Positions 2,829 through 35,369 of a stretch of 64,000 bases of DNA are shown piece by piece; within the stretch, counting starts at the first letter, position 1, and every line of letters begins with the position of its first letter. The stretch spans positions 114,448-178,447 of the forward strand of contig JBBTWJ010000003.1 of the NCBI GenBank assembly GCA_038062895.1. Direction: 5' to 3'. Under the pieces are notes generated by a model, which saw only the letters and a list, made by a program, of their open reading frames with translations, did not search any database and was not told the DNA's origin. A program made the translations under genes and the position numbers. Source of the DNA: Patescibacteria group bacterium. Its GTDB lineage: Bacteria; Patescibacteriota; Microgenomatia; UBA10105; UBA927.

Positions 2829-5114
2829 TCATGCCACAACCCCCATAAATTCAACCGTGCCGCCACAATATTCCACGATCTTCTCAACAGACTCATGGAG
2901 ACTGCGCGCAACTTGTTCTGATGTGATATCAAACACACCATCGACATTGATCCAAATATTTTTTGTCGCTTCCGTCACCATCGTGCGCTGGGCATCACGG
3001 AAGTTAAAATCGATATTATACCCGCCATCCTGATCATAATACGCAAGTTCCTTGGATGTGTATTTGGTCGCCCCGCTATCTCCAAGCAGTAATATTTCAT
3101 CTCCAACTCCCGCATATCGAAGTATGGTCGGAAACTTGACGGTATCGTAATCAAATGCACCGACCGATATCCGATGCTTCATGACAACGAGATTATATGC
3201 ATCCACACAGGTATTTATGGAATACAGTCCCTTACCCAATGCCACACGACGCAGTAAAGCCTCCGGAGAGGGACGCCGGGAATGCCAATCAATTCCCATT
3301 TCTTTATAGAGCTTACGATAACTTACGATCTCCGGATGCTGACCCAATTGTTCCGTCGTCAAACCCGCGAGAGATACAAGGAATTCTTTTTTTTCTGTTT
3401 CCAACTGTTCATTGAACTTTTGTATCTTTACGTCACGGATAAGCGCGATACCGATACTTGCCGAGGGATACCGCTCTTTTACCTTGGGATCGATCGAAAA
3501 TAAATCCGGTCTATCTATAGATTTCACTGATGACTGTTGTTTAGGTGATTGTGTTTTTTTGTTCAGCGTCAACCGTTCAACCATCACCTCAGTTGGAAAT
3601 TTTTTGAGTAACCACCCTGCCCGCGGCCCGTGCGGTTTATCCAGCGTGACCATATACAACGCATGAAATGCCTTTCCATGATCGATTTCATTTGTTTTTG
3701 CCAAGCGAAAAATTTCCGATTGCAACATTTCAGGATCATTTATTTTTGGCCAAATTATGGAAAGATCATTGAGAAACTTCCACTGTTCCTGGGATAATTC
3801 AATTTCATCAAATCGTTTCAAAGATATTTGATATCGATACTCATCCGGTGCATATTTACTTAACCAGACAGCTGTGTACGTTAAACGATCATTGAGAATA
3901 CGCTTCTCAAACTCACTCAATTGCGTACCTTTCACTGCTTCTAATTTACTCTGAAGGTCAACGTTAGGGAGCTGCCGATAATTAGCTATATCCCGAAATC
4001 TTGGTATAAATAATCCGGGAATTCGTGCGGGCACCTCTCCCGTTTGTGCATACTCAAACGCATGGGACAATTCTTCATCTTCCTCTTTGTTATACGCCTG
4101 CCAACAGCGATCATATTCATCAAAGAGATCCGGAATTGCCATCGTGCTCACAGGATCAAACTCAATTGCACGGTGGTAATCGGTTCTCGTGAAGAGAAAC
4201 CGCCCGATTGATGGAGGCAATAGCTTGGTAAGATCCCTCGCCTTGAGTCCTAACCCTTTTGATGAAGACATTTTTTTACCGCCGATAAGAATAAACTCGT
4301 ACGGCAAATTATAGGGGTTTGTAATATGGAATACTTCTTCACAAAGCGCTTTGGCAATATCGCGTGAACCACCAGCCGAGGAATGATCTTTTCCAGCGCC
4401 TTCAATCGTGACTCCGAGAACTTTCCAGTGTGCCGGCCAATCTACTTTCCACGGAAGCTTTCCGTTTCCATCAAAAGGGCTCACTGTACCGGTATGGCCA
4501 CATCCTTTCGTCCAAGTAACCATCGCCGGCTCACACGTATAAGAAACCATCTTACCGTCCCAACCATGCACCCGGGTCGTGCCCAGCTTCCCGCACTTCT
4601 CACAGATGACCTGGATGGGCATCCAGCCTTTCTCACGCTTTTTGCTCCCGCTTATACGCTGATAGATATCCTGTATCGTTTCCGAATTATCTAATGCTTC
4701 CCGGATAACTCCGTTAAACTTGCCTTCCCGGTACATATCCCAGGATGAAAGATACGTCGCCATCACTCCCATGCTCTTGAGCACCTGTTGAAAATCTTTG
4801 GTAAAATAATCGGCAAAACTCTCATACCCCTTTTCCGGAGACCGTGCGGTACGAAGGGGCTTACCCAACTCATCAGAGAGCGATGAAAGCTCGGGAGGTA
4901 ACCCGTCTATGGGATCGAAGTCGTTCAATACGTAGGTAAACGTCACGCTCTCGTTGGCTCGTTGAAGTGCCCGAAAAACCATATCATGTACGAGAGGTCC
5001 GCGAAGCGAGCCAATATGCGCAAACCCCGACGGGGTAAACATATCGTCCACCCAAAATGGCCGGTGGGCGCCGGAATCAATAATCTGTTTTGCAATTTTG
5101 TCTGCCCAAAACAT
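2829..5114 (-). CDS. lysK: class I lysyl-tRNA synthetase fused to a C-terminal B3/4 (tRNA-binding/editing-like) domain
   Basis: HIGS (HIGH-like) motif and the exact KMSSSKG signature of class I LysRS; the last ~230 aa resemble the PheT B3/4 domain. Confidence 0.85.
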   Translation of the reverse strand: MFWADKIAKQIIDSGAHRPFWVDDMFTPSGFAHIGSLRGPLVHDMVFRALQRANESVTFTYVLNDFDPIDGLPPELSSLSDELGKPLRTARSPEKGYESFADYFTKDFQQVLKSMGVMATYLSSWDMYREGKFNGVIREALDNSETIQDIYQRISGSKKREKGWMPIQVICEKCGKLGTTRVHGWDGKMVSYTCEPAMVTWTKGCGHTGTVSPFDGNGKLPWKVDWPAHWKVLGVTIEGAGKDHSSAGGSRDIAKALCEEVFHITNPYNLPYEFILIGGKKMSSSKGLGLKARDLTKLLPPSIGRFLFTRTDYHRAIEFDPVSTMAIPDLFDEYDRCWQAYNKEEDEELSHAFEYAQTGEVPARIPGLFIPRFRDIANYRQLPNVDLQSKLEAVKGTQLSEFEKRILNDRLTYTAVWLSKYAPDEYRYQISLKRFDEIELSQEQWKFLNDLSIIWPKINDPEMLQSEIFRLAKTNEIDHGKAFHALYMVTLDKPHGPRAGWLLKKFPTEVMVERLTLNKKTQSPKQQSSVKSIDRPDLFSIDPKVKERYPSASIGIALIRDVKIQKFNEQLETEKKEFLVSLAGLTTEQLGQHPEIVSYRKLYKEMGIDWHSRRPSPEALLRRVALGKGLYSINTCVDAYNLVVMKHRISVGAFDYDTVKFPTILRYAGVGDEILLLGDSGATKYTSKELAYYDQDGGYNIDFNFRDAQRTMVTEATKNIWINVDGVFDITSEQVARSLHESVEKIVEYCGGTVEFMGVVA

Positions 5115-5130
5115 ATACCTATATTATCAA

Positions 5131-5158
5131 AAAAATCCGGCGTCCGCCGGATTTTTTA
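5131..5158. terminator. bidirectional intrinsic terminator between the greA stop and the lysK start
   Basis: AAAAAATCCGGCG-TCC-GCCGGATTTTTT, a perfect hairpin flanked by A and T runs. Confidence 0.5.
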
Positions 5159-5175
5159 AAATTATGTAATAATTT

Positions 5176-5640
5176 TTATTCGATGTGGACTATCTTGTAA
5201 AGGATTTTACCCGCCGGTGCCTCTACTTCCACGCTATCTCCGGGCTTTTTCCCCATGAGGGCTTTACCCAGAGGAGACTCGTGGGAAATTTTCTTTTCCT
5301 TGGGATCTGCTTCCCACTCTCCTACTACGGTAAACATATCTTTCTTCCCGTTAACGTGAAGGGTGACTTTGCAGCCCACATCCACCTGTGTTTTACCGTG
5401 GCTCGTAACGACTTTGGCGCTATGAAGAATATCCTCAAGCTCGGCAATCCTACCATCTATGAACGCTAAATCCTGCTTGGCTGCTGCGTATTCACTGTTT
5501 TCCGAAAGATCCCCGAGGCTTCGGGCGTCAGAAAGCCGCGCCACAGCTACAGGACGCTTCGTTTTTACCAGCTCATCATACTCGGCTTTGAGTTCGTCGA
5601 GTCCTTCTTTGGTAAGCATCATTTTGTGATGTGGGTCCAT
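5176..5640 (-). CDS. greA: transcription elongation factor GreA
   Basis: LTKEGLDELKAEYDEL coiled-coil N-terminus and a C-terminal FKBP-like domain; the true start may be the internal MM at about 5619. Confidence 0.85.
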   Translation of the reverse strand: MDPHHKMMLTKEGLDELKAEYDELVKTKRPVAVARLSDARSLGDLSENSEYAAAKQDLAFIDGRIAELEDILHSAKVVTSHGKTQVDVGCKVTLHVNGKKDMFTVVGEWEADPKEKKISHESPLGKALMGKKPGDSVEVEAPAGKILYKIVHIE

Positions 5641-5702
5641 ATATCAAATTTGACAGCGCCGATTAGTGCGCTGTCGTACAGAGGAAGTTTACGGAAATTA
5701 CC

Positions 5703-5731
5703 TTGCCTTGTCAAGCATGAATTGATAGAAT
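5703..5731 (+). promoter_or_regulatory. sigma70-like promoter for tRNA-Glu
   Basis: TTGCCT-17 nt-TAGAAT ending about 12 nt before the tRNA 5' end. Confidence 0.35.
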
Positions 5732-5743
5732 CATCAAGTGCAC

Positions 5744-5817
5744 GCCGCCATCGTCTAGTGGCCTAGGACGGTTGATTCTCAATCAACAAACCGAGGGTTC
5801 GAATCCCTCTGGCGGCA
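5744..5817 (+). tRNA. tRNA-Glu (anticodon CTC)
   Basis: Cloverleaf with acceptor GCCGCCA/TGGCGGC, D-loop GTCTAGTGGCCTAGGAC, anticodon loop TTCTCAA and T-arm GGGTTCGAATCCC; no encoded CCA. Confidence 0.8.
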
Positions 5818-5908
5818 CTGAAGGGGTCCCCTGCACCAGTGATAAGCAGGGTGCAGAGCCACGTACTGAATTTTATTCTAGTACTGTGGCGACTCCCCTA
5901 CGCGCTAC

Positions 5909-7459
5909 TTAATTCAGGAGACCTAATTTGGCAAGACGCGATCTGATAGCGCCATTTTTTCTCTCGAATGTTTTAGACAAATCGCCCGTCGACCAACCTT
6001 TTGTATATAGATTCTTCAATTTCTCATCTTGTTCTTTGTCCCAAGGTCGGTAAGCGTTCGGATGTACTTCTCTAATTTTATCAAAACCCGTTCCACCATC
6101 GCTTTTCCCACCGCATCGGGCAATGAACTGCTTATGCATTGCCGCTATTTCCTCCCTTCCCATTTTAGTAAATGTATCGACTGTAGCCACCGACTGTGCT
6201 CTGAACGCCCCATCTTTGGCGACGATATCCGGATGCACCTGAAATGCGCGTTCGTTCCATCCGAGAATGTAGAGATCGGAAAGCCGCCGGATGCGCGAGA
6301 GCGCAACATATCCCTGACCAAATTCAAAAACGCCCGAGAGATCCACGACCGCCTTTTCCAATGTCATTCCTTGACTCTTATGTACTGTGATAGCCCAGGC
6401 CAGACGAAGCGGTAGCTGGGTAATCTGCGCCCGAATGGTACCGTTTTCTTCGACCGACCAATCCATGGGTTCAACGGTAATCTGTCGCCCGTTGCGTACC
6501 GTGACGATAGGATAGCCTTCCTCTTCATCAAATTCTCTAATCACCCCAAGCGTGCCGTTGACAAATCCTTCTTTGGGACTATTTTTCGTGAACATGACTG
6601 TGGCGCCAACTTTCAGAAGAAGCGTTTCAGGCGAAAGACACCCTTTTTTCAGGGCAGCTACCAACGCATCAGGACCTTGCGCGGACATGGGGAAACCACG
6701 CGGCTCGTCCGGAAGCTTCGCGAGCACCTCATCGTTGATGCGATCTACGTCTACGTTATGCGTGAATAGTTTCGGCGCGTTTTTCGGTACGGCTTGCGAA
6801 TGGGTTTTTCTCGCTTCAATCTGATGCAAGTGATCGATAGTGAACGCATTGCGCCGGATTGCTGAAAGTACGCCCAAAAAATCACGGTCGTCCTGTCGGT
6901 ATTGTTCGGTAAGGTAGCATACGGTTGGATTTGCCCCAATCCACGCAGAAGAATCATACGCGAATCGCGCTAATGATTTTTCAATGAGCGTGGCTTGTAC
7001 ACTTTGTTCTGTTTCTTTTTTTACCACTGGCGGCAGTTGAAAAAAATCACCGGAAAAAACTACCTGCATACCGCCAAACGGTTCCGGATGCTGTGTAATC
7101 TTACGAACTACCGCGTCAACCATGGAGAGCGTCTCGGGATTGAGCATGGATACTTCTTCGATGATAAGAACATTAGCCCGACGGACGCGCTTGGTAATAT
7201 ATTGACTGGATGCTATTTTTTGAAGATCGTGTTGAGAGAGCGTCGTTTTTATCCCTATCCCGCTCCATGAATGGATCGTCATCCCGCCGATATGGGTGGC
7301 CGCGATACCAGTTGAGGCCGTTATTGCCGGTTCAATACCCCGACCACGCAAATACGCTACATACTCGTTGATCGCATAGGTCTTGCCGCTTCCCGGCTCC
7401 CCGGTCAAAAAAACATTAGCGCCGGTTTTGAGTATGGCAAGTGCTTGAGATTGCGTCAT
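5909..7459 (-). CDS. PIF1/RecD-family ATP-dependent DNA helicase with a C-terminal HTH-like tail
   Basis: Walker A GEPGSGKT, AAA_30/UvrD_C_2-type layout, SF1B motifs. Confidence 0.75.
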   Translation of the reverse strand: MTQSQALAILKTGANVFLTGEPGSGKTYAINEYVAYLRGRGIEPAITASTGIAATHIGGMTIHSWSGIGIKTTLSQHDLQKIASSQYITKRVRRANVLIIEEVSMLNPETLSMVDAVVRKITQHPEPFGGMQVVFSGDFFQLPPVVKKETEQSVQATLIEKSLARFAYDSSAWIGANPTVCYLTEQYRQDDRDFLGVLSAIRRNAFTIDHLHQIEARKTHSQAVPKNAPKLFTHNVDVDRINDEVLAKLPDEPRGFPMSAQGPDALVAALKKGCLSPETLLLKVGATVMFTKNSPKEGFVNGTLGVIREFDEEEGYPIVTVRNGRQITVEPMDWSVEENGTIRAQITQLPLRLAWAITVHKSQGMTLEKAVVDLSGVFEFGQGYVALSRIRRLSDLYILGWNERAFQVHPDIVAKDGAFRAQSVATVDTFTKMGREEIAAMHKQFIARCGGKSDGGTGFDKIREVHPNAYRPWDKEQDEKLKNLYTKGWSTGDLSKTFERKNGAIRSRLAKLGLLN

Positions 7460-8499
7460 TTATTGTTTCTCTTTAACAATTTTTTCGCCAAGCGGTCAAA
7501 ATCTGATACGTAGTTTTTGTCCTGTATTTTTTTATATTTTTCATACTCAGCAAGGGCAAGAGTTTCTGCTACTTCATGGCTGATTCTTCCGGCGTCACCT
7601 AGAATTTGTCGCTCGTTAAATTTCAGAAAGGCGTTCAATCGTGATACCCAGTCCTTCATATACATGATAATCCCACGCTTTGCTTGCATTTCTGCATAGT
7701 CGAGGTACATAGTCACAATTCTGTTTAAGTGGTCAAGTTCTCTTTCATTCAAATAGTTTTTGGCGATCACGACATCTGACTCTCGAATGGTACCCTTTGG
7801 AGAATTTTTCCAAACAGTGAGCCCCATATATGACTTGGTACTATCAGCTCTTTCGTGTACTATCTCTGAGGCAGTTTTACCGGTGATGGCAAAGTGGAGT
7901 TTGTTTTGCACTGTTGCAAAAAATTGTTTGGTAATTTCTTCATCGGAATCATAATCAGCGCTGCACTGAGCGTAAATATCGGTAATTTTTTGATACATGC
8001 GCCTTTCGCTTGACCGTATATCTCGTATTCGTGCAAGCTGTTCCTCAAAATAATCCTTTCCAAAAATATTGTATGGGTCTTTTAGTTTCTCGTCATTCAT
8101 TGTAAATCCCTTGATGATATATTCTTTCAATCTTTCCGTCGCCCATATTCTAAATAGAGTCGCCTGCCGACTACTCACTCGATAACCAACAGAAAGAATA
8201 GCGTCAAGGTTGTAAAATTCCACATCTCTGGTAACCAGACGTTTCCCTTCATTTTGAACTTGTGCAATTTTTGCACTCGTTGAATTTTTGTCTAACTCGC
8301 CTTCCTGAAAAATGTTTTGAAGATGTTTGGTAACTACGCTTCTCTCCACACCAAAAAGATCGGAGATTTTTGCTTGCGTCAACCACACGGTTTCATCGCG
8401 CAAGAAAATCTCAACTTTTACCTGACCGTTTGGGGTAGTGTAAAGGAGAAACTCCGTAAAGCTATTATTTGGAACGATTTTTTTGTTGTTTTTTTTCAT
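7456..8499 (-). CDS. RhuM-family protein (DNA-binding protein typically clustered with restriction-modification loci)
   Basis: Strong match to the RhuM core (DLFGVERSVVTKHLQNIFQEGEL ... LSVGYRVSSRQATLFRIWATERLKEY); its start overlaps the helicase stop by 4 bp. Confidence 0.75.
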   Translation of the reverse strand: MKKNNKKIVPNNSFTEFLLYTTPNGQVKVEIFLRDETVWLTQAKISDLFGVERSVVTKHLQNIFQEGELDKNSTSAKIAQVQNEGKRLVTRDVEFYNLDAILSVGYRVSSRQATLFRIWATERLKEYIIKGFTMNDEKLKDPYNIFGKDYFEEQLARIRDIRSSERRMYQKITDIYAQCSADYDSDEEITKQFFATVQNKLHFAITGKTASEIVHERADSTKSYMGLTVWKNSPKGTIRESDVVIAKNYLNERELDHLNRIVTMYLDYAEMQAKRGIIMYMKDWVSRLNAFLKFNERQILGDAGRISHEVAETLALAEYEKYKKIQDKNYVSDFDRLAKKLLKRNNK

Positions 8500-8827
8500 A
8501 ACATAACATTACATCGAAAATAACCCGAAAGTCAATCGCTCAATATGTCCAGTTTAAAAAAATTCATCAGGGTAAAACGCTTGAAGAAGCTATGGATGAA
8601 TTATTTGGGACCACCAAAATTGGTGAGGGCATTGGAATGTTTGTGATATTTACGAACGGCACGGCATTCGCCCTCGCCCGTTTTCTTCACGAAGATATCT
8701 ATAGTAAATAGTAATGAAGTAAGCTAAACACAGGCACTCAAACTCATTCGATTAAAATTCAAATTGGATACTACAAAAAGAAGAGGTGCGAACCTAATTC
8801 ACCCGAAGGGTAGCCTAAACAAAACAA

Positions 8828-9316
8828 TTAGAGGTTGAATAAAAATCCGCCAAGAACCTCTTGGCCACCCAATTTTCTATACCACCCTGCTTGTTTATCT
8901 CCGTGTTTTACAACGAATTGCGTACTGCCATATCGTTTAGATAATTCCAGTGCAGTTTTTAGCAATACGGCTCCAACATGCTTTTTTCTGAAAGCCTCTA
9001 CGATATAAATACCATCATCATCTGCCAAGACGCGCAAATCCATGGCGGGAACAGCCAAGTCCGGTCGTTTTCTGATGATTGGAGATTCTAGTACACCGAA
9101 TTTCGTATCGGCGTTATTCATAAAGTCGCAAATTGCGATCGCCTGATCCGTAGCGTCGTATGCTGTTAACGCGATATATCTACGCTTACCTGGCACAACA
9201 TCGAACACGCTTGATTCTAATTCACCCGATTCTATTGGCAAGCGTGCACCACCATAGAAGCGCTCGATATTACTCAAGACAATAGGCGACTCGCGTGACA
9301 ATTCGTAGGAGCTCAT
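8828..9316 (-). CDS. GNAT-family N-acetyltransferase (tentative)
   Basis: GNAT motif-A-like RKKHVGAVLLKTALELSKRYG; size fits a single GNAT domain. Confidence 0.45.
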   Translation of the reverse strand: MSSYELSRESPIVLSNIERFYGGARLPIESGELESSVFDVVPGKRRYIALTAYDATDQAIAICDFMNNADTKFGVLESPIIRKRPDLAVPAMDLRVLADDDGIYIVEAFRKKHVGAVLLKTALELSKRYGSTQFVVKHGDKQAGWYRKLGGQEVLGGFLFNL

Positions 9317-9477
9317 GTCGGTGCTATTATCTCATACGGTGGGGAACAATTGTAATTTTTGGATGAGGCCAGAAGAGTTCTAATTTCGTCCCAACACCTG
9401 TACCGAAATACGTCTTGGTAGGCGATAAAAAAAATCCGATTGCGAAACTTACTCCTCCTCCATGATAAAATCTTCCC

Positions 9478-10422
9478 ATGTATCACCGCAGACGATATGA
9501 GCGTACAAAGGCTTCTCCCATAAAAAAATTCTTTTGGCTTGCTCTTGTCTTGGTAATCGTAATGCTCCTCGTTCGTGCGACCGGATCAAAACAAAATTCT
9601 TCCATTATCTCTCCCATTCCGGAGGAAACCAGCCAACCTGCTCAAGCGTTTGGAGGATTATTTACCAAGAAAAAAACACCGGAGGATCTCCGGACGAAAA
9701 TACAGGAACTAGTCAACAACCGACTGAAAAACTACTCTGTGTACGTAAAGGACTTAAATTCCCCCTTCACGATGGGCATCAACGAAACCATCATATACAC
9801 CGCCGCCTCGATCAATAAAGTCCCAATCATTGCCGCTCTCTACTACTACGCAGGCAAAGGCGAGATTGATCTAGATGAACGCATCACCATCCAAACGCGG
9901 GACATACAGGATTTCGGCACCGGCTCCATCCGCTATGACCCTCCGGGGATGGTCTATGCCATCAAAACACTTGCCAAACTCGCCATAGAGCAAAGCGACA
10001 ATACCGCAGCCTACGTCCTGGGCACCTACACCGTGGGGCTTGATAAAGTGCAGGCACTCATGGATCAGTGGGGGCTGACCCAAACGGATATGCTCAATAA
10101 TAAAACCTCCAATCATGATATGAGCATACTCTTTGAAAAAATCTATAAAGGAGAGTTGACCAACGCTGCATCCACCCAGGAAATACTCGCTTTCTTCAAA
10201 GACACGGACTTTGAAGACCGGATCCCCGCGTTGCTGCCAAAAACCGTCGCGGTCTATCACAAAATTGGCAATGAAATCGCCATCATGCATGACGCCGGTA
10301 TCGTGACGGACGGCAAGACCATCTACTACATCGGCATATTTACCAACGATATAACGGATGAGGAAGAGACGAAGAAGATAATCACGCAAGTTTCTAAATT
10401 AGTATATGACTACCTTCGCTGA
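9478..10422 (+). CDS. class A beta-lactamase-related serine hydrolase with an N-terminal membrane anchor
   Basis: SINK (SxxK), SDN and KIG (KTG-like) motifs in canonical order; hydrophobic N-terminus. Confidence 0.65.
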   Translation: MYHRRRYERTKASPIKKFFWLALVLVIVMLLVRATGSKQNSSIISPIPEETSQPAQAFGGLFTKKKTPEDLRTKIQELVNNRLKNYSVYVKDLNSPFTMGINETIIYTAASINKVPIIAALYYYAGKGEIDLDERITIQTRDIQDFGTGSIRYDPPGMVYAIKTLAKLAIEQSDNTAAYVLGTYTVGLDKVQALMDQWGLTQTDMLNNKTSNHDMSILFEKIYKGELTNAASTQEILAFFKDTDFEDRIPALLPKTVAVYHKIGNEIAIMHDAGIVTDGKTIYYIGIFTNDITDEEETKKIITQVSKLVYDYLR

Positions 10423-10505
10423 CGCACCCCGATACCAATATACGAACCAGCCTCGCTTAGACGCGAGTCTAGGCGGGTGAATACTAATGCAACGAATAAA
10501 CAGCA

Positions 10506-13007
10506 TTATGCATTGAGGTGAAGAGAGGGACGCATCGTGGGGAGTGACCGGACCTTTCTGACCGGTAACGGCTTGGTAAGCGCGATTTTAAGCACCTCGT
10601 CCATATGCTCCACAAAGTGAAATGACAGATCCTTGGTAACGCTCTTAGGAATGTCTTCCAGGTCCTTTTTATTATCTTTCGGCAATATGATTGTTCGGAT
10701 ACCGGCCCGATGAGCAGCAATCACTTTTTCCTTCACCCCGCCGATTTCCAGCACTCTACCCCGAAGCGTCACTTCGCCCGTCATGGCAATCGTCCGATGA
10801 ATCGGGATTCCGGTCACTGCTGATACAAGTGACGTGGTGATGGCGATACCCGCTGACGGACCGTCTTTCGGCACGGCTCCTTCCGGCACATGGATATGGA
10901 CATCAAGTTTTCCAAAAAACTTTTCATCCAGTCCAAGCTCCCGCCATTTGCTGCGCATCCACGAAAGCGCCGCGTGACCAGATTCTTTCATAACGTCTCC
11001 AAGCTGGCCGGTAAGCAAGAGACTCCCCTTCCCCGGCATGAGCGCGGTTTCGATAAAAAGAATCACGCCGCCTGCTTCTGTCCACGCAAGTCCGGTAGAC
11101 ATACCAACAGCATCTGTTTTTTCCGCTAAATACGACGAGAAACGGTACGGGCCTAAGTACTGGTGAAGATCTTTGGGACTCAACGGAAGCTTGCCTACGC
11201 CTTTACCGTTTTTTTCAGCGATCTTTTTGGCAACCTTCCGGTAGAGTTTGGCAATTTCGCGTTCCAAACTCCTGACTCCGGCTTCGCGCGTATACCGCCG
11301 AATGATAGTGAAAAACGTTTGACTGGTCAGGCTCACGACCCCCTTGGGGATACCATGTATCTCCCGTTGCTTTTCCATAATGAAATCACGGACGATATGA
11401 AATTTCTCTTCCTCCGTATACCCGGGGAAATGGATAATCTCAAGCCGGTCCCGCAACGCAGGCGGAATAGTATCCAGGATGTTACAGGTGGTGATGAAAA
11501 ATACGTCAGAGAGATCAAACGGCACATCCAGGTAATGATCGGAAAATGCATAGTTTTGCTCCGGATCCAGGGCTTCCAGAAGTGCCGCCGAGGGATCGCC
11601 ACGGAAGTCGTTGCCCACTTTGTCTATTTCATCCAGCATAAATACCGGATTTTTGGTTCCCGCCTGCTTAATGCCCTGGATAATGCGTCCAGGAAGGGCG
11701 CCCACATAGGTACGGCGATGGCCACGGATCTCTGCTTCATCGCGGATACCGCCCAAAGACATCTTCACGAACTTTCGACCAATAGACCGCGCAATTGATT
11801 TGCCAATCGAGGTCTTTCCTACGCCGGGAGGGCCGACGAAACAAAGGATCGTTGGCGCGGATTTCGCTTTGCGCACGAGTGTATCCGATACCTTTATGCT
11901 TTCCGTCTGGCCAGGTACCGATTCTTGCGGAATCACTGGTATTTCCTTACTCTCCATTTCTTCCTGTTTTTGCGCTGCTGCGCGAAGCTTCATGACTGCC
12001 AAATACTCGAGGATTCGTTCTTTGATCTTCGTCAACCCGTAGTGATCTTCATCAAGAATAGATTCGGCGGTCTTGATAACGACATCATTTGCAGTCGCTA
12101 CCGCCCACGGCAACTCAACGAGCCAATCCAAGTAGGTACGCACATACGAGGATTCAGGATTATACTGGGACATCTGTCCTAACCGCGAAAGCTCTTTCTC
12201 GGCTTTCACCCGGACCTCTTCCGGCATCCCAGCCTTTTTGATTTTATCCGCAAGCTCTTTCGTCTCTTTGTTGTCGCCGTCCTCGCCCAACTCTTTCTCA
12301 ATCGTCTTCATGCGCTCCCGCAAGACCTGTTCTCGAACATTTTTATCAAACTTTTCCTGGGTCTTACTGGCAATTTTTTTCTCTATCTCAAGAATTTTGA
12401 TCTCGTGGGCCAGATATACAATTTCTTTTTCCAAGCGCTCTCTGACTGAATTAATTTCCAACAATTCCTGCCGCTCGCCTGGTTTGATATCGATAATGCC
12501 TGCAATCTGGTAGGAAAGCTGGAGTGATCCAACCCCGGACATAATATTCATGAAGGTCAAAAAATCCATGGACTTACCCAAATTCACAGCTCGGCGCAGT
12601 TCGCCCGTGATATGGCGGGTCAATGCTTTCACGTCATCGTTCTCCTCAACAATATCTTCTTTGGGTATCACTCGGGCGACAAAAAATGGCTCTACCGCTT
12701 CAAAGCTTACTATCTCAACTTTGGCGATACCCCGCACCAGCGCATTAATCTCCCCTTCGTTTTTCATCATCTGTACGATTTCACCCACTGTGGCTGTGGT
12801 AAACAAATCTGTTGGCGTAGGGTCATTGACGTTGGGATTCTTCTGCATGGCCAAAACGACACGCTTGCCGGATGCTTGCGCGGCTTCAATTGCCGATACC
12901 GAACGGGATCTTCCGAATGTGAGGATCATTTCCGTACCGGGGTACACGATGCCATCCCGGATGGGAACGACGGGGAACATTTGTTGATTTTGCGATATGA
13001 TATCCAT
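10506..13007 (-). CDS. lon: ATP-dependent protease Lon
   Basis: Lon N-domain, AAA+ Walker A GPPGVGKTS, and a C-terminal protease domain with the catalytic region PKDGPSAGIA. Confidence 0.9.
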   Translation of the reverse strand: MDIISQNQQMFPVVPIRDGIVYPGTEMILTFGRSRSVSAIEAAQASGKRVVLAMQKNPNVNDPTPTDLFTTATVGEIVQMMKNEGEINALVRGIAKVEIVSFEAVEPFFVARVIPKEDIVEENDDVKALTRHITGELRRAVNLGKSMDFLTFMNIMSGVGSLQLSYQIAGIIDIKPGERQELLEINSVRERLEKEIVYLAHEIKILEIEKKIASKTQEKFDKNVREQVLRERMKTIEKELGEDGDNKETKELADKIKKAGMPEEVRVKAEKELSRLGQMSQYNPESSYVRTYLDWLVELPWAVATANDVVIKTAESILDEDHYGLTKIKERILEYLAVMKLRAAAQKQEEMESKEIPVIPQESVPGQTESIKVSDTLVRKAKSAPTILCFVGPPGVGKTSIGKSIARSIGRKFVKMSLGGIRDEAEIRGHRRTYVGALPGRIIQGIKQAGTKNPVFMLDEIDKVGNDFRGDPSAALLEALDPEQNYAFSDHYLDVPFDLSDVFFITTCNILDTIPPALRDRLEIIHFPGYTEEEKFHIVRDFIMEKQREIHGIPKGVVSLTSQTFFTIIRRYTREAGVRSLEREIAKLYRKVAKKIAEKNGKGVGKLPLSPKDLHQYLGPYRFSSYLAEKTDAVGMSTGLAWTEAGGVILFIETALMPGKGSLLLTGQLGDVMKESGHAALSWMRSKWRELGLDEKFFGKLDVHIHVPEGAVPKDGPSAGIAITTSLVSAVTGIPIHRTIAMTGEVTLRGRVLEIGGVKEKVIAAHRAGIRTIILPKDNKKDLEDIPKSVTKDLSFHFVEHMDEVLKIALTKPLPVRKVRSLPTMRPSLHLNA

Positions 13008-13008
13008 G

Positions 13009-13136
13009 CCAGGTAGTGAAAATTCGACTAATGATTGATAACCATGATCATCTAGTTAACCAAATATATTCAACTTGTATTAAACTTCCAGATAGATAGC
13101 ATCGCTTCGCGATGCGGTCGAATTTCTACTACCTGG
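13009..13136. repeat. inverted-repeat-bounded element, copy 1 (20-bp arms CCAGGTAGTGAAAATTCGAC / GTCGAATTTCTACTACCTGG around an 88-nt spacer)
   Basis: Arms are 18/20 complementary; the left arm sits 1 nt from the lon ATG; same arm family at 18564, 20336 and 53075. Confidence 0.55.
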
Positions 13137-13185
13137 TTGGCACTCAAGTATAACAAGTGCCAACAACCTCGTCAAGCGACAAAAC

Positions 13186-14049
13186 CTAGCGGAATTCGGA
13201 AAGAAGTGTATCCAAATCAAAGCTCCCAAGTGGTTGGTTTGCCAGCGGACCTGCGGCCAACGCCGGCTCACGATCTTCACTCGTCGGGGCTGCTTCCCGG
13301 TAAAACACACCGAGGGGAATCTTATCTCCCCATTCAAACGCTTTTTCAATAGCCGCGAGGCGATTATCGGGCACATACTTGACTGAATCGAGTTGGTACA
13401 ACCGAGTCCGATACCATTGATACGTATGGACGTGATTGAACGTGACGCATGGCTGCAAAATATCAAGAACGGAAAACCCCTTATGCTTGATCGCCTCGGC
13501 TATAAGCTTGGTGAGTCCCGGCATGTCACCGGCAAACCCACGCGCGACGAACGTCGCACCGGAAACCAGGGCTAACGCCAACGGATTAACCGGCGTATCC
13601 ACGACCCCCTCCGGGGTAGATTTCGTCTTGAGATGATCCTTCGCCGTGGGAGAGGCCTGTCCCGTCGTTAAGCCATACACCTGATTGTCATGGATGAGAA
13701 CCGTGATATCCGGATTCCGTTTCGCCGCATGGATAAAGTGATTACCTCCCTCGCCCAAACAATCACCATCTCCCGCAATGGCAATGACTGGAATCGTATG
13801 ATTGGCAAGCTTCGCGCCTTGCGCTATCGGCAATGACCGGCCATGAAGGCCTTCGACTCCATAGGTGCGCATCCAGGCGCTCATATTCCCATGACAGCCA
13901 ATCCCATAAACAAAAAGAGCGTCATCCGGGCCGATCCCAAGCTCAACCAATGCGTTTTTGAGTGCCATCCAGATACCGAAATCCCCACACCCCGGACACC
14001 AGGTTGGAAGGTAACCGGTTTTAAAACTGTCTGCAGTGATGGATGTCAT
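13186..14049 (-). CDS. korB: 2-oxoacid:ferredoxin oxidoreductase beta subunit (TPP-binding)
   Basis: CPGCGDFG thiamine-PP/FeS-proximal motif and the GDGD TPP-binding region. Confidence 0.85.
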   Translation of the reverse strand: MTSITADSFKTGYLPTWCPGCGDFGIWMALKNALVELGIGPDDALFVYGIGCHGNMSAWMRTYGVEGLHGRSLPIAQGAKLANHTIPVIAIAGDGDCLGEGGNHFIHAAKRNPDITVLIHDNQVYGLTTGQASPTAKDHLKTKSTPEGVVDTPVNPLALALVSGATFVARGFAGDMPGLTKLIAEAIKHKGFSVLDILQPCVTFNHVHTYQWYRTRLYQLDSVKYVPDNRLAAIEKAFEWGDKIPLGVFYREAAPTSEDREPALAAGPLANQPLGSFDLDTLLSEFR

Positions 14050-14052
14050 ATG

Positions 14053-14092
14053 GTTACTTAGTTACTTAGTTACTTAGTTAGTTGCTTGGTTA
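14053..14092. repeat. tandem octamer GTTACTTA x3 plus degenerate copies, abutting the korB start codon
   Basis: Read directly from the sequence in the korA-korB intergenic leader. Confidence 0.5.
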
Positions 14093-14122
14093 CATTTGCT
14101 TTGTGCAAAGTAACATACATTG

Positions 14123-15862
14123 CTAACGCACTCTCTCAATAATCTCCTCGGGCAAGAACGGTCTGCCATCGTATTTTAAGAGTTTTTCCGTAATATCGAT
14201 ACCCGTCTGTTGGCGGACAAGAGAAGCCAACTGTCCGGTAGCATTTTGTTCTATATCAATGATACGGGTGGATCCCGTCAAGAGCGAGGTAGCAGATTCT
14301 ACAGGGAACGGATAAAGCCACGGAAAATAAATAACTTTTGCTGATCCGCCACCCACATGAAAGTCCGTCATGTTCATCGCTTCCAAAACCGGCCCAAGTG
14401 TAGAACCCCATGTCACTATTGTCGTTTGGGCAGATGCATCACCGTGAACCACGGGCGGCATGATGACGTTCTTAATTGCACTAAGTTTCTTCAGACGCCT
14501 GTCTACCATGGCTTGGCGAATCCCAGCATCTTCCGATACCAGTCCCGTTTCATCGTGTTCGTAGGAATTTGCCATGTATTGCCCGCCCTTCATACCGGGG
14601 AAGCTACGGGCGGAAACCCCATCAGAAGCGCCCAAATCAAAGCGTTTATAACTCGTTTCACTTGGGTGTTCTCCCTGCGGCATCACCTTTCCCCGATCAA
14701 TGCTCACCGTGCCTTTCATTTTGCTTGTCAGCACGCACCACTGGCTTTCATTGAGATATTTATCCGTAAGCACAAAAACCGGCACATGAAATTGTTCTGC
14801 GAGTTCAAACGCTTTGATCGTGAGTTCATAGGCCTCTGTAGCATCAAACGGAGCTAACACAATCCTGGGAAACTCTCCATGCCCCGCATGAATAATAAAT
14901 CCAAGATCTCCCTGCTCGGTCCAGGTAGGCATACCAGTGGCAGGACCAACCCGCATCCCCATATCAATCACCAGCGGCACTTCTATCATCCCTGCCAAGG
15001 ATACCCCTTCGACCATGAGGGCGAACCCTCCGCCACTCGTGGCCACCATACTGCGGACACCACTCAACGCCGCACCGATAGCCATATTGATACCGGCAAT
15101 CTCATCTTCCGGCTGTTTATAGACAATTCCTAGTGATTTAGCGTGATCAGCCAGAAACGAAATAAGAGAATTGATGGGCGTCATGGGATAAATTGCCGCG
15201 AATTTAAGTCCCGCCCGTACCGCGCCTACTCCCACGGCCTCGCTGCCGTTTATGAGAAGATAATCCTCCTTCTTGAGAGGTACTTCAAGCGTAAGAGATG
15301 AAAAAGACGAGACCACGCCAGTCACCGCGTCAAATCCCGCGCGGGCAATATCGATGTTATGGTTGACGACCGCCTCACCCTTTTTCCCAAACTGATCACG
15401 GATGACGTCGGCTAAATACTCAAACGGTGCGCCAAGAAATGCAAAACTTGTTCCGAGTGCCACTGTGTTGCGCATGATCACGTCTCCACCTTTTTTTTGC
15501 ACTAATTCACGAAATGGAACCGGAACAAGAGAAACCCCTTTGGGTAATTCTTCACCCTTCCAATCATAATCATTCGGGTCAAAGACAAGAACCGTGCCTT
15601 CTGTCATGTCTTTTTTATGAAGCTCGACCGTCTCTTTATTGAGGGCAATCAAAATGTGAAGCGAACGATCTAGGGAATGAAACGGTTTTGTAGCAATCCG
15701 TACCGTCACCGCGTTATGCCCTCCGCGGATAAGTGAGGGGTATTCGTTGAGTGAAAATATATAATACCCGTGCCTGGAAAAAGCCCGGGCAAGCATCGTG
15801 CCGGAAGCCATGATACCAAATCCTGCTTCCCCCCCTATTTTCCATGTAATGGACTGTGCCAT
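14123..15862 (-). CDS. korA: 2-oxoacid:ferredoxin oxidoreductase alpha subunit (fused gamma-alpha domains)
   Basis: N-terminal WKIGGEAGFGI gamma-type domain followed by a POR alpha domain; ATG at 15862 preferred over the TTG at 15889. Confidence 0.85.
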   Translation of the reverse strand: MAQSITWKIGGEAGFGIMASGTMLARAFSRHGYYIFSLNEYPSLIRGGHNAVTVRIATKPFHSLDRSLHILIALNKETVELHKKDMTEGTVLVFDPNDYDWKGEELPKGVSLVPVPFRELVQKKGGDVIMRNTVALGTSFAFLGAPFEYLADVIRDQFGKKGEAVVNHNIDIARAGFDAVTGVVSSFSSLTLEVPLKKEDYLLINGSEAVGVGAVRAGLKFAAIYPMTPINSLISFLADHAKSLGIVYKQPEDEIAGINMAIGAALSGVRSMVATSGGGFALMVEGVSLAGMIEVPLVIDMGMRVGPATGMPTWTEQGDLGFIIHAGHGEFPRIVLAPFDATEAYELTIKAFELAEQFHVPVFVLTDKYLNESQWCVLTSKMKGTVSIDRGKVMPQGEHPSETSYKRFDLGASDGVSARSFPGMKGGQYMANSYEHDETGLVSEDAGIRQAMVDRRLKKLSAIKNVIMPPVVHGDASAQTTIVTWGSTLGPVLEAMNMTDFHVGGGSAKVIYFPWLYPFPVESATSLLTGSTRIIDIEQNATGQLASLVRQQTGIDITEKLLKYDGRPFLPEEIIERVR

Positions 15863-15870
15863 ATCTTTAA

Positions 15871-15906
15871 CAATACAACAACCTGACAATACAACAAATT
15901 GACAAT
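15871..15906. promoter_or_regulatory. direct repeats TGACAATACAACAA (two copies plus a half copy) in the 66-bp divergent region between korA and the ANL ligase
   Basis: CAATACAACAA at 15871-15881 and 15887-15897, TGACAAT again at 15900; the same AACAATAC unit recurs four times inside the ligase CDS. Confidence 0.4.
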
Positions 15907-15928
15907 TTCTGAAAGTGCATGAATTCTC

Positions 15929-18319
15929 ATGCGACGATCGACTACTATATATAGTATGAATGATCTACCGCGGGTCCGACTACCTGTAAACTCTGTCGAA
16001 GAATTACTCGCAAGTCACGCGGGTACATATGCTGATAAAGCGGCGCTCATCGCGGTTCACGTAGATACCGACGAGATCAATACGATTTCTTACCGCGAGC
16101 TGAACATCCTGGTCGGCCGGGCGGCAGCGTGGCTTTCCTCTCTGGGCATCAAGCGCGGTGACCGGTTTGCAATCCTCATGCCCAACGCTCCGGAAGTCAT
16201 AATCCTGGAACTGGCCGGTGCGATAATCGGGGCCGCAACGGTCCCGCTGGATTCCAAACGCGATACCATAGAACGCAAACTATTCAAATTAAAAGACACC
16301 GGCGCAAAAGCAATCCTTATCAAACAAGAGGAAAAATCTGCAGAAGAAAGAGAAACTCTTGCACAGGCATTACCGCATCTCACAATCCGCACATGGACCA
16401 CGTTTGGTGAATTTCAAACCATACTGACAGGGCCAGGCCCTGTCACTCACGCAAAGGGATCGCTTGAGGACTACTACGTGATCCTCTATACGTCAGGGAC
16501 AACCGCGCTTCCCAAAGGAGTCCTTCTTTCCACACGAGCGTGCCTGTTAAACGCTATGGGCATCCTACAGTGGCAACAATTTACTCACGATGATGTCTTT
16601 TCTATTGTGCTCCCGCTTCATCACATCAACTCGACAGAATTTAGTCTTGCTATGATACTCGCCGGCGGTACGATCGTTCTCAATTCCCGCTATAGCGCAA
16701 GCCACTTCTGGCAGGTAATCAACCGCTTCCGGATAACCAACACGAGTGTCGTTCCCACGATCCTCCACGATCTTCTTACCCGTGTCGATGAATTTATATC
16801 ATTACACCTGGATGTATCCTCACTTAAACGCATCTGTATCGGTTCAGCTCCTGTACTACCAGAAGAAACAATGCGATTCTACGATTCATTTAAGGTACGA
16901 GTCACTCAAGGATATGGCCAGACCGAAACTGCGCTGCGCGTGGCCGGTGTGCCGGTAGACACAAACGAAGAGACGTACCGCGAATTTGTCAAAAGCAACA
17001 CGATCGGTACCGAGCTTGCCAATAATCACCTCGCAATTATGGACGGGAATAATAATGAAAAGAACGAAAGCGAGGAGGGGGAAATATGCATAGCCGGCCC
17101 AATTCTCGCCGGTGGATACCTCAATAACCCGGAGGAATCAACAAAATCATTCAAAAATAGCTGGTTTCATTCCGGCGACCTCGGGTACTGGAAAATGATC
17201 GACGGCAAAAAATATTTCTTCATCATCGGGCGTATCAAAGAAATCATCATCAAAGGCGGAGTCAACCTCTCACCGTCTGCCATAGAAGATGCACTTCTCA
17301 AAGCATTTCCCCAAATCGATGAGGTGAGCGTCGTGGGATACCCGGATGCGCGTATGGGGGAAGAAATTGCAGCGGTTATAGTCTTGACAGGGTTGGACCC
17401 TGTCAAACAACAGGGCTCAACCCTAGCGGACAAATTTGTCCAATTAGTTTTAGATGCTGCTCAAAATGGAAAAATCTCCGGACTTTCCCGTTATGAGTCG
17501 CCCAAAAAGGTATTTATTGTCGATACCCTCCCGAAAACCTCGACCGGAAAAATCCAAAGAGTTGAGATAAAAAAAAGTGTTGCCACACGTATCAAAAGCG
17601 AGCACCCCCACCATTACTATGTCCGCACCATTGCTAATCATGAGACGGAAATCATGAAACAGGCTCTCAAGATAAATAACGCGCGGTTTCCGTTTATTCC
17701 ATCACTATTGGAGGAATTTATTGCTCGAACACAAAATGGGCTCTTTTTCGGTGTTTTTGATGAATCTGAAGGTCTGATCGGTTCTCTCTCCTGTATCAGG
17801 ACGAACCATACGATGATAGAAAAGGTCAAAACGTGGAATGAAGCAACCGCAGAGGGAACGCTCGCAAATCACGATCCCCACGGAGATACGCTTGCATGCG
17901 TGGCGATCTCTGTCAAAACAACATCGAACAATACAACAATACAACAATACAACAATACTAACGAAGATACATTACAACGCCTCGCAAAAAAATATATTAA
18001 AGAATACGTAAGTTTGGACAAAGATCACGTGCTAAATTTTCATAAACGATCCAAGGGAGGAATCCCTGGGGCTACGGTATGGAAAATTTTGGAAAACGGC
18101 AGACGGGAAGATAAAGAGGCCATAGGGTACAACGTCCTCATGAAGTATCCTACCATCGATGTATCCACAACTATTATCCGGAGTAACGCACCCTCTCCGG
18201 CAATTCTTCTCATCGAACACGCACTTCTTTACGCGAAAGAGCATGGAGTAAAAGATGTCATTGCGTTCTCCCGTCCTTCGGGGTTTCGAAAATATCTGGC
18301 AGAAAAACTACGGATATAA
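15929..18319 (+). CDS. ANL-superfamily adenylate-forming enzyme (acyl-CoA synthetase-like) fused to a ~250-aa C-terminal GNAT-like domain
   Basis: A3 YTSGTTALPKG, A5 GYGQTE, A7 YHSGDLGYW, A8 GRIKEIIIKGG, A10 PKTSTGKIQR; the C-terminal domain ends ...AILLIEHALLYAKEHG, which is acyltransferase-like. Confidence 0.7.
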   Translation: MRRSTTIYSMNDLPRVRLPVNSVEELLASHAGTYADKAALIAVHVDTDEINTISYRELNILVGRAAAWLSSLGIKRGDRFAILMPNAPEVIILELAGAIIGAATVPLDSKRDTIERKLFKLKDTGAKAILIKQEEKSAEERETLAQALPHLTIRTWTTFGEFQTILTGPGPVTHAKGSLEDYYVILYTSGTTALPKGVLLSTRACLLNAMGILQWQQFTHDDVFSIVLPLHHINSTEFSLAMILAGGTIVLNSRYSASHFWQVINRFRITNTSVVPTILHDLLTRVDEFISLHLDVSSLKRICIGSAPVLPEETMRFYDSFKVRVTQGYGQTETALRVAGVPVDTNEETYREFVKSNTIGTELANNHLAIMDGNNNEKNESEEGEICIAGPILAGGYLNNPEESTKSFKNSWFHSGDLGYWKMIDGKKYFFIIGRIKEIIIKGGVNLSPSAIEDALLKAFPQIDEVSVVGYPDARMGEEIAAVIVLTGLDPVKQQGSTLADKFVQLVLDAAQNGKISGLSRYESPKKVFIVDTLPKTSTGKIQRVEIKKSVATRIKSEHPHHYYVRTIANHETEIMKQALKINNARFPFIPSLLEEFIARTQNGLFFGVFDESEGLIGSLSCIRTNHTMIEKVKTWNEATAEGTLANHDPHGDTLACVAISVKTTSNNTTIQQYNNTNEDTLQRLAKKYIKEYVSLDKDHVLNFHKRSKGGIPGATVWKILENGRREDKEAIGYNVLMKYPTIDVSTTIIRSNAPSPAILLIEHALLYAKEHGVKDVIAFSRPSGFRKYLAEKLRI
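17927..17958. repeat. tandem octamer AACAATAC x4 inside the ANL-ligase CDS (encodes SNNTTIQQYNNT)
   Basis: Four perfect 8-nt units; 32 nt is not a multiple of 3 yet the frame is intact. Confidence 0.6.
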
Positions 18320-31421: not shown

Positions 31422-31494
31422 AACCTAAAAAAATCATTATGGCTTTCTTACCGATAGAATTTCAGGTGCGTCGGGAATATAATTGCACTAGACC

Positions 31495-32370
31495 ATGATA
31501 GGAATCATATTTGCACTGCTTTGCGCTATATTTATAGGATTTTCCCAGATATCTCTTCGCAAAAGTTATAAGAAATTTCCTCCTTCTATCGCTTTTTTGT
31601 TTGACTCAATTTTTGGTTTATTGATTTGGGTTCCACTTGCCTTCTTTATGGGAATCTCTGGAACCGTAAACTGGGGACGTGCGATATTTTTTGCGATTGT
31701 TTCAGCCATCCTTTCTGAAGCCATTGTTTTTTACGCCTTATCACACGGAACATTGACTGTTACCGCTACAGTACTCGCAACATATCCAGTTTATACAGTT
31801 ATCTTTTCAAGACTGTTTAATAATGAAGTCCTCTCTGTTCAGATAACACTCTTTGTGATTCTAGCGATCTTGGGAAGCATAATCGCCAGCTTACCTGACA
31901 AAATCAAAACATCTGAAATAAAATTAAGCAAAGGAATCATGTGGCCATTCATCGCAGCCGTCTGCATTGGACTTTCAGATACTATTTCAAAGGGTTATAT
32001 TAATAGGTCGGGAAACTTTAGTTTCTTATTTTCACTAGGGTTTGTCCAGATTCCCATAGCGTTGGCTTACTTAAAAATTGAGAAACAATCCCTAATCAAA
32101 TCAATTGAAGGTGTCACAAAACGACTAAAGGAATATAAATTCGCATTACTAGGTGGTTTGTTCAATATTGTTGGAACTGGATTTCTGTGGTTAAGTTTTT
32201 CCTACGCTCCGGCTTCAATAGTCTCACCCATAACGGGGACTAGCGGGGCATTAACTGTAATCCTATCAAGACTCTTACTGAAAGAGAAAATCACGAAAAT
32301 AAAATATTTGGGAATTATATTTGCTTTTATTGGAATAATAGGGATAACCGTTTTGCGGACAAATTATTAG
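31495..32370 (+). CDS. DMT/EamA-family transporter
   Basis: Ten-TM pattern with duplicated EamA halves. Confidence 0.75.
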   Translation: MIGIIFALLCAIFIGFSQISLRKSYKKFPPSIAFLFDSIFGLLIWVPLAFFMGISGTVNWGRAIFFAIVSAILSEAIVFYALSHGTLTVTATVLATYPVYTVIFSRLFNNEVLSVQITLFVILAILGSIIASLPDKIKTSEIKLSKGIMWPFIAAVCIGLSDTISKGYINRSGNFSFLFSLGFVQIPIALAYLKIEKQSLIKSIEGVTKRLKEYKFALLGGLFNIVGTGFLWLSFSYAPASIVSPITGTSGALTVILSRLLLKEKITKIKYLGIIFAFIGIIGITVLRTNY

Positions 32371-32391
32371 AGACTCCGTCAATGGAACTGA

Positions 32392-33063: not shown

Positions 33064-33139
33064 ACTTAGTTATTATCTTGCGAATCTCATTGGTCTCGAA
33101 CCATTTAATCCGATAATTGCTACTCGAACAAGTTTGAGC

Positions 33140-33964: not shown

Positions 33965-34092
33965 ATTTTAGACCTCGATCATGAAAGTCTAGTTACATGT
34001 CTGCCAATCTTATCTGAGTGGGCCAGTCAAGGCCCGTTTAGTCATTAAAGAATAAGAACGGGAAACCCAAACCTCGAATCATTTAACGGTAG

Positions 34093-34824: not shown

Positions 34825-34916
34825 ATTTTTAATACATACGTCTAATTATAATTTAAAGCGTCCAATCGTGCTGCAGTGCTAGTGCCCTTTCGAGTATTTT
34901 CGAATCGATTATAGTC

Positions 34917-35189: not shown

Positions 35190-35300
35190 ATCAGTTCATC
35201 CCTCGACTCTGGTTCGACTTCGCTCACCATTCGCTCGAGAAGTGCGACATTGATATTTCTGCCCCTCGATTACACTCGGGGTCTTCGCTTCGCTTCGAGC

Positions 35301-35369
35301 TGGGAGACCTGGATTCGAACCAAGATAAACGGATTCAGAGTCCGTTGTCCGACCATTAGACGATCTCCC
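35301..35369 (-). tRNA. tRNA-Gln (anticodon CTG), slightly short D-arm
   Basis: Minus strand GGGAGAT...ACGGA-CTCTGAA-TCCGT...CTTGGTTCGAATCCAGG-TCTCCCA; the T-arm is identical to E. coli tRNA-Gln. Confidence 0.6.

Follow-up and report, generated by a model that had tools for sequence, protein, structure and literature searches.

Do a helicase gene and a RhuM gene that overlap by four nucleotides beside a tRNA gene form one system, or have two genes with different histories merely come to lie end to end? We asked this of a locus in a 64,000-nucleotide stretch of Patescibacteria DNA (hereafter the window), in which a Pif1-family helicase and a RhuM-family protein are encoded next to tRNA-Glu. 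The closest relatives of the class I lysyl-tRNA synthetase (LysRS) encoded nearby are from Candidatus Gottesmanbacteria, and the source of the window is a tiny groundwater bacterium, a Gottesmanbacteria-like member of the Patescibacteria within the candidate phyla radiation (CPR). A first-pass annotation had described the two genes as a compact, translationally coupled module. The comparisons below lead us to favour, as fairly probable, a different reading, namely that RhuM arrived as a mobile cassette of one gene, at the margin of a tRNA-Glu hotspot, and came to abut a Pif1 helicase already resident there. The locus is ordinary genome-island biology and not a new kind of system; its novelty lies in the lineage of the host, in the precise anatomy and in a conserved leader upstream of RhuM, while the kind of element is already known. 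The features on which the argument turns are these, in window coordinates:

5744–5818, + strand: intact tRNA-Glu, anticodon CTC (ARAGORN; Rfam RF00005 tRNA, 66.5 bits)
5860–5908, + strand: decayed 3' two-thirds of a second tRNA-Glu, a different allele (alignment to the L168 and L170 tRNAs)
5909–7459, − strand: Pif1-family superfamily 1B (SF1B) DNA helicase, 516 residues (Pfam PIF1 and Pif1_2B_dom, PDB relatives)
7456–8499, − strand: full-length RhuM-family protein, 347 residues (Pfam Virulence_RhuM, PADLOC PDC-S05)
8500–8552, − strand: promoter/operator-like RhuM leader (cross-locus alignment)
8553–8711, + strand: pseudogene of an NTPase_I-T protein, a DUF84/YjjX-like non-canonical purine NTP phosphatase (phmmer, tblastn)
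8712–8827: AT-rich spacer between the pseudogene and a GNAT-like open reading frame (ORF)

How often the two genes occur together was counted from both sides. On the helicase side, 80 loci of GTDB species representatives (50–70% helicase identity) were sampled, and the gene was called in 78 of them. RhuM was directly upstream of the helicase in none of these 78 loci from other GTDB species, 67 of which had room to show it; divergent RhuM-like genes stood one or two genes upstream in L013 and L020. The neighbours were varied and mostly housekeeping, including, as read from the sequences, arginyl-tRNA synthetase (ArgRS), thymidylate kinase (Tmk), dUTPase, IF-2, MsrB and a cold-shock protein and, by Pfam, a small GIY-YIG protein and a PD-(D/E)XK/Cas4-like nuclease. 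In the relatives L166–L169 the helicase is kept beside tRNA-Glu, GreA and LysRS without RhuM. Seen from the other side, in 80 metagenome loci of which 54 held a full RhuM gene and room downstream, the helicase was next to RhuM once (L140), and not in any of the 54. The genes found there were HsdM/HsdS/HsdR of type I restriction-modification (R-M) systems in 21 of the 80 loci and Fic in seven, with Bro-N, RadC and AAA_21 genes recurring nearby. A further candidate pair, L176, was a false lead, as it consists of HsdR and RhuM with no helicase. These counts, together with the unlike GC content of the two genes described below, speak against a compact two-gene module; the proposal of an accessory element at a tRNA stands, and the pair is not universally conserved in relatives.

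The overlap that had suggested coupling is real. The helicase ATG (7459–7457) and the RhuM TGA (7458–7456) share the tetranucleotide ATGA, giving the 4-bp start/stop overlap originally described. Its specificity to this pair, however, does not hold up: nearly all members of the helicase family start with ATGA, so that a TGA in the +1 frame is always on hand, and unrelated upstream ORFs end on that TGA elsewhere, for example MsrB in L072. In L093, the stop of a Trypsin_2 gene lies 4 nt ahead of the helicase start. Because the ATGA start is generic, the overlap says little in favour of a module.

RhuM has the marks of a mobile gene. Its family assignment holds under profile hidden Markov model search, with PF13310 Virulence_RhuM matched at 2.5e-109 (364.9 bits against a cut-off of 33.7; profile positions 2–249 of 252), and the protein also matches the PADLOC model PDC-S05 (PDLC04851) at 3.9e-147 over positions 5–337 of 342, which makes it a candidate defence gene. 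GC content is 0.388 in RhuM, compared with 0.491 in the helicase and 0.468 ± 0.046 in the long ORFs of the window, and because of this difference we take RhuM to be foreign and the helicase native; with its low GC, RhuM was probably acquired horizontally. Among the matches listed, its homologues are 75–86% identical and come from Patescibacteria, Ignavibacteriaceae, Gammaproteobacteria and WOR-1, and identity this high across phyla implies strong constraint and horizontal transfer. An origin from phage is unsupported, as no relatives were found in viral contigs and no PHROG was matched. Tandem RhuM paralogues occur in seven of the 80 RhuM loci (L093, L099, L101, L110, L117, L118 and L141); the copies in an array share ~45–55% identity, and the more divergent one usually comes first. 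Invariant RhuM residues include R165/R166, Q197/N198 and H201.

What RhuM does can be approached through its family. Anantharaman et al. (2013) proposed RhuM as a toxin domain that takes the place of Fic/DOC in R-M loci (PMC3710099), RhuM genes are enriched beside phase-variable R-M genes (PMC9881135), and a preprint reports that a single PDC-S05 gene gives 10- to 1000-fold protection against T7, T5 and T4 in E. coli (10.1101/2024.09.26.614923). RhuM probably works alone as a defence or toxin protein, with a putative N-terminal DNA-binding part and a putative all-helical C-terminal effector; the N-terminal ~70 residues give weak matches of helix-turn-helix (HTH) type. Against the PDB, a single-sequence search returned a chance-level match only (E 0.33) and a profile search was empty, and AlphaFold, given an alignment of 31 sequences, produced no usable model, the mean predicted local distance difference test (pLDDT) score being 43, because the homologues listed are all 75–86% identical.

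The RhuM cassette also includes DNA directly upstream of the gene. The 53-nt leader (8500–8552) shares 88–93% identity with the DNA preceding RhuM in L105, L002, L098, L001 and L093, and at its core alignment A3 shows 22 invariant bases, ATTGACTTTCGGGTTATTTTCG (8515–8536, − strand), whereas the RhuM coding DNA in the same loci is just 55–77% identical. Among 176 loci, the 22-nt motif is found exclusively upstream of RhuM genes (L001 4632–4647, L002 8956–8971, L093 1681–1696, L098 and L105 5962–5977, L111 3327–3342), and it occurs once in the window. On the − strand, the leader can be read as a promoter, with a candidate −35 box TTGACT, a 16-nt spacer, a candidate −10 box TGTAAT and 8 nt to the ATG. 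This reading derives from the cross-locus alignment and not from a generic promoter/terminator scan, which missed the RhuM promoter and barely exceeded the shuffled expectation. The invariant spacer suggests an operator in addition to a promoter. ATTGACTTTCGGGTTATTTTCG also holds two TTTCGG half-sites 11 nt apart, and the 22-nt element may serve as both; a possible operator of this kind would then stand upstream of a subset of RhuM genes.

Conservation of the leader stops at 8552, and homology to an NTPase_I-T gene starts at 8553, which places an insertion breakpoint between the two. A full-sensitivity phmmer search against 1.84 billion representatives matched the remnant to the last ~60 residues of NTPase_I-T proteins at E-values of 5e-11 to 1e-7 (P0362, 5.1e-11; P0363, 5.7e-09). 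The best match, P0362 (178 residues), is itself PF01931 at 5.7e-50, and in tblastn its residues 117–177 align to window positions 8553–8702 with 56% identity and an 11-residue gap (E 9e-15). The remnant therefore represents the last ~61 codons of the gene, with the first ~116 codons gone and 11 codons deleted internally; there is no start codon where the homology begins, and an ATG at 8592 opens an ORF of 39 residues only. The first-pass annotation had already noted here a + strand frame without a proper start and suspected a decayed gene, which we can now name, at ~8536–8712; strand and frame were right, while the homology begins at 8553 rather than 8536. Its suggestion that the fragment fits an old insertion site is likewise borne out by a decayed gene cut at the very edge of the RhuM cassette. 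Beyond the pseudogene, the spacer (8712–8827) had no tblastx or blastn match to any locus and no Rfam match, and GC over 8500–8827 is 0.378. Some database proteins (P0363–P0366) consist of the C-terminal ~60 residues of NTPase_I-T only, alone or fused, as in P0363, where an RQC domain precedes them; the end of this gene may survive truncation repeatedly.

On its other side, the locus opens onto a variable tRNA flank. The tRNA-Glu(CTC), placed at 5744–5817 by the first-pass annotation, is present and ends at 5818 according to ARAGORN and Rfam, and Rfam matched nothing besides the tRNA; its 3' end points into the variable region, and an identical tRNA-Glu lies at the equivalent position in L002 and L172. 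Anchoring on LysRS and GreA, we compared what lies 3' of this same tRNA among relatives (LysRS identity to the window in brackets):

Window and L002 (100% and 85%): Pif1, then RhuM
L168 (62%): AEP-TOTE/SNF2 helicase, then Pif1, no RhuM
L170 (62%): TspO, then Pif1
L172 (81%): Fic and redox genes, no Pif1
L174 (71%): large serine recombinase, then TrwB/DUF87/Replic_Relax genes

Five different contents thus occupy one tRNA-Glu/GreA/LysRS locus. In L172, the segment is bounded by an 18-nt repeat (17/18) of the tRNA 3' end, 9.3 kb off, and in L174 the serine recombinase ORF overlaps the tRNA-Glu 3' end. Cargo varies even upstream of an identical helicase protein (P0005), with a DUF4011 helicase, RNase_H_2 and Bro-N in one sample and GmrSD and DUF2130 in another, while L001 carries ThsB-TIR and Bro-N genes separated by a tRNA-Glu 3' remnant. 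The earlier description of a tRNA-adjacent accessory site therefore agrees with a flank that is variable and integration-prone across relatives.

The window carries a trace of such events. At 5860–5908, 42 nt from the intact tRNA and ending exactly at the helicase stop codon, lies a remnant that aligns locally to the L170 tRNA from the anticodon arm to the 3' end. Its core 18-mer, GACTCCCCTACGCGCTAC (5891–5908), recurs in L002 at 11607–11624 and matches the 3' ends of the intact tRNA-Glu of L168 and L170 at 16 of 18 positions; tRNA-tail matches at a looser threshold arise by chance 0.03 times per shuffle. The remnant is a scar of past rearrangement or integration at the tRNA. A distal repeat test found no other tRNA-tail copies in 5819–16000, the RhuM–helicase region showed only short, chance-level att or inverted repeats and no repeat families of note, and no integrase or recombinase was found among the window ORFs from 2829 to 13007.

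The helicase between tRNA and RhuM looks native and is a true member of the Pif1 family. The 516-residue SF1B helicase called earlier on the opposite strand is confirmed by the ORF and by both of its domains, PF05970 PIF1 (3.7e-35, 122 bits against a gathering cut-off of 25.9) and, at residues 269–310, the 2B/SH3 domain PF21530 Pif1_2B_dom (2.3e-07, 30.8 bits against 23.9). In the PDB, its best relatives are ScPif1 (7.8e-65), human PIF1 (1.2e-63), Bacteroides Pif1 (5.3e-55) and also Thermus Pif1. The Walker A motif GEPGSGKT aligns to GSAGTGKS of ScPif1, VDAVVRKITQHPEPFGGMQVVFSGDFFQLPPV aligns to the Pif1 signature region, and Walker B reads IIEEVSM against VVDEISM, its first acidic residue being E rather than D throughout the family. 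GC is 0.491 against 0.466 for the window, and GC at third codon positions (GC3) is also typical of the genome. Homologues at 62–78% identity are very numerous, mostly from Patescibacteria, with some labelled Deltaproteobacteria or Nitrospira. Judged from its family, the helicase most likely serves general genome maintenance, in an accessory role in replication or repair.

The C-terminal tail of the helicase (last ~50 residues) has no Pfam match, and many longer homologues carry an extra HTH_40 domain. The tail is conserved in the family (W472, R499, G502, I504, L508, L511), matches a PHROG 'transcriptional regulator' weakly (2.3e-4) and is the sole confidently modelled part of an AlphaFold prediction whose core is poor (mean pLDDT 48), with helices at 474–485, 490–497 and 501–510 reaching pLDDT 91–95. 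The earlier label 'HTH-like' thus seems reasonable for this predicted three-helix tail (~465–515).

Two further observations concern the surroundings of the helicase. A PD-(D/E)XK/Cas4-like nuclease of ~280 residues lies directly upstream of Pif1 in four of five species (L019, L047, L059, L075 and, as the fifth, L014, where it is one gene further upstream), making it a more recurrent Pif1 partner than RhuM in a nuclease–helicase combination that recalls AddB/Dna2. Small GIY-YIG proteins (~82–90 residues) recur beside Pif1 and beside tRNA genes in CPR genomes, as in L002 (11760–12020) and in the helicase loci L007, L010, L017, L028 and L036.

We can now sketch how the locus may have arisen. The 3' flank of tRNA-Glu(CTC) is a hotspot with turnover of accessory and defence genes, beside which the Pif1 helicase would be a long-standing resident. 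A RhuM cassette, presumed to comprise one gene and ~53 nt of its own promoter/operator and to move horizontally, would have been placed just upstream of the helicase, such that the RhuM frame came to end on the TGA within the helicase ATGA. The same insertion would have removed the 5' two-thirds of the NTPase_I-T gene, leaving 8553–8711. Transcription of RhuM would then start at its own promoter, perhaps so close to the ATG at 8499 (within a few nucleotides of it) that the mRNA is nearly leaderless, and would read through into the helicase.

Two sets of observations weigh against this sequence of events, and each leads to an alternative. One is the recurrence of the pairing in about five diverged Gottesmanbacteria-like lineages. 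A junction in which a RhuM C terminus of the form ...KKLLxKxKK and its stop run into ATGAC is kept in the window, L171 (the same strain, 99.9% identical), L001 (Gottesmanbacteria GCA_016218215), L002/L003 (Gottesmanbacteria GCA_030679255, with tRNA-Glu/GreA/LysRS synteny identical to that of the window) and L140, at 72–84% (helicase) and 58–88% (RhuM) identity between junction-bearing sequences and the window. The N-terminal two-thirds of RhuM in L002 are a different allele (DNA identity 0.55–0.63), with 0.82–0.86 in the junction region. In L175, a 3' remnant of RhuM, which contains an in-frame stop, overlaps the helicase ATGA, and a complete RhuM gene lies 12 nt downstream of the helicase gene; the RhuM gene of L093 is on the same strand as the helicase, 4 kb upstream. 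The persistent junction could reflect selection for linkage. RhuM and Pif1 might then be a lineage-specific anti-phage system of the Gottesmanbacteria-like clade, co-transcribed and translationally coupled, in which the HTH-tailed helicase would recognise invading DNA or replication intermediates, or else unwind them, with RhuM as effector, or would license RhuM. Such a system would explain how the zero-spacer junction outlived 16–28% helicase divergence and the partial replacement of the RhuM 5' part in L002, and why L175, where the upstream copy was lost, has a new RhuM downstream, adjacency having survived rearrangement. The sole promoter-like element identified for the pair is upstream of RhuM, and PADLOC candidate systems include Pif1/RecD-like helicases, although the window helicase matches them weakly and partially (PDC-S68, 5e-17). 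We nonetheless consider a two-gene system unlikely, given that outside one sub-clade it is met in none of the 67 informative helicase loci and one of 80 RhuM loci, that overlap at ATGA is a general trait of this helicase, that the helicase persists at the locus without RhuM, that the GC contents differ and that a RhuM-domain gene alone is reported to suffice for defence (10.1101/2024.09.26.614923). A literature search yielded no published RhuM–Pif1 system. Nor are the pair-bearing helicases monophyletic: the core identity matrix of the helicase sub-clade is star-like (78–84%), and its pair-bearing members do not group. We instead read the pairing as the product of a single ancestral juxtaposition, since inherited and eroded in part.

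The other set concerns the residency of the helicase. It is absent from the L172 locus despite 81% LysRS identity, in L174 it was not seen within ~7 kb upstream of the tRNA and a mobile element is present, and the foreign-allele tRNA-Glu remnant abuts the helicase stop codon in both the window and L002. The helicase could therefore be old island cargo, in the sense that helicase and RhuM together would be a block carried by an old integrative element at tRNA-Glu, which the helicase would serve and whose integrase would since have been lost. In keeping with this, the L004 helicase has AbiEii, a serine recombinase and a TrwB-like gene as neighbours within 10 kb, and 62–78% identity of the family across phyla implies transfer. 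Helicase and LysRS identities are also discordant (72% against 85% in L002, 77% against 62% in L170), a hint of exchange that is tempered by the star-like matrix and by DNA identity to L002 close to that of the backbone (~0.75 in the helicase, ~0.81 in LysRS/GreA), which fits vertical descent. The genome-typical GC and GC3 of the helicase, the lack of an integrase among the ORFs searched and of a second tRNA tail in 5819–16000, the mostly housekeeping neighbours in 78 other species and the presence of the helicase at the locus in relatives as distant as 62% LysRS identity also argue for a resident, and we hold the old-element explanation to be doubtful, a little more so than the two-gene system. 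A last possibility takes RhuM out of defence altogether, as a DinD-like DNA-binding protein of the DNA-damage or stress response that would work together with the helicase to repair DNA. In PMC9881135, a quoted conserved-domain note places a dinD domain in RhuM-domain proteins, the N terminus has its weak HTH-type matches, and the gene adjoins a DNA helicase; but members of the family are found overwhelmingly in R-M and defence islands, GC is low, the distribution is patchy across phyla and anti-phage activity is reported for a PDC-S05 gene (10.1101/2024.09.26.614923), making this very improbable.

The genes flanking the region are housekeeping or otherwise ordinary:

2829–5114, − strand: class I LysRS fused to a B3_4 domain
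5176–5640: GreA
8828–9316, − strand: weak GNAT-like ORF
9478–10422: class A beta-lactamase-fold protein
10506–13007: Lon

The B3_4 domain, familiar from the phenylalanyl-tRNA synthetase beta subunit, is C-terminal in LysRS, and the same fusion is present in 120 of 120 homologues among the matches listed. A second low-GC islet at 31492–35370 adjoins a tRNA-Gln(CTG) at 35299–35370. It contains a small GIY-YIG protein (34917–35189), a T5orf172/MUG113 protein with a homing-endonuclease repeat (34093–34824, GC 0.33), an ORF without a Pfam match (33140–33964, GC 0.33) and an EamA transporter (31495–32370, GC 0.37); foreign genes seem to gather at this second tRNA of the window too. The same-strain contig L171, from groundwater, departs from the window past position 6294, inside the helicase, into a ribosomal protein L5 gene (L171 9167–9512). 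The ribosomal protein sequence makes a chimeric assembly the most likely source of this truncated helicase, with a real rearrangement less likely.

Defence islands and hotspots are well described in model bacteria and hardly so in the ultra-small, host-dependent CPR bacteria, for which this locus offers a scar-by-scar example: a strain-variable tRNA-Glu hotspot, a sharp-edged RhuM cassette and a housekeeping-type gene destroyed. The recurrent RhuM–Pif1 juxtaposition can be tested as a system, and the finding is an ordinary one if the pairing is only positional.

Compared with known systems, each part of the locus has a clear relative and a departure from it. The site resembles tRNA-linked islands in its position at a tRNA 3' end, its strain-level variation in content, its tRNA scars and the serine recombinase of L174; it differs in that the window has neither an integrase nor a distal repeat, and in that foreign composition is confined to ~1.4 kb (RhuM and spacer) next to a helicase that looks native. 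The helicase aligns with bacterial Pif1 proteins (Bacteroides 5FHD/5FTB, Thermus oshimai 6S3E; Bochman et al. 2011, PMC3113762) over the SF1B core, the 2B/SH3 domain, the signature and the motifs, and departs from them in a Walker B with EE instead of DE and in its added C-terminal three-helix tail. The remnant aligns to the C-terminal ~61 residues of NTPase_I-T/YjjX proteins (PF01931), but being 5'-truncated and internally deleted it cannot encode the enzyme. RhuM, finally, matches both family models over their full length and shares with RhuM/PDC-S05 genes a cross-phylum mobility and homologues in type I R-M and defence contexts (PMC3710099). Unlike these, the window gene stands outside an R-M operon, with zero spacer to a Pif1 helicase and in a CPR genome, and it carries upstream a promoter/operator-like element of 22 invariant nucleotides that is shared with only a subset of CPR-type RhuM genes.

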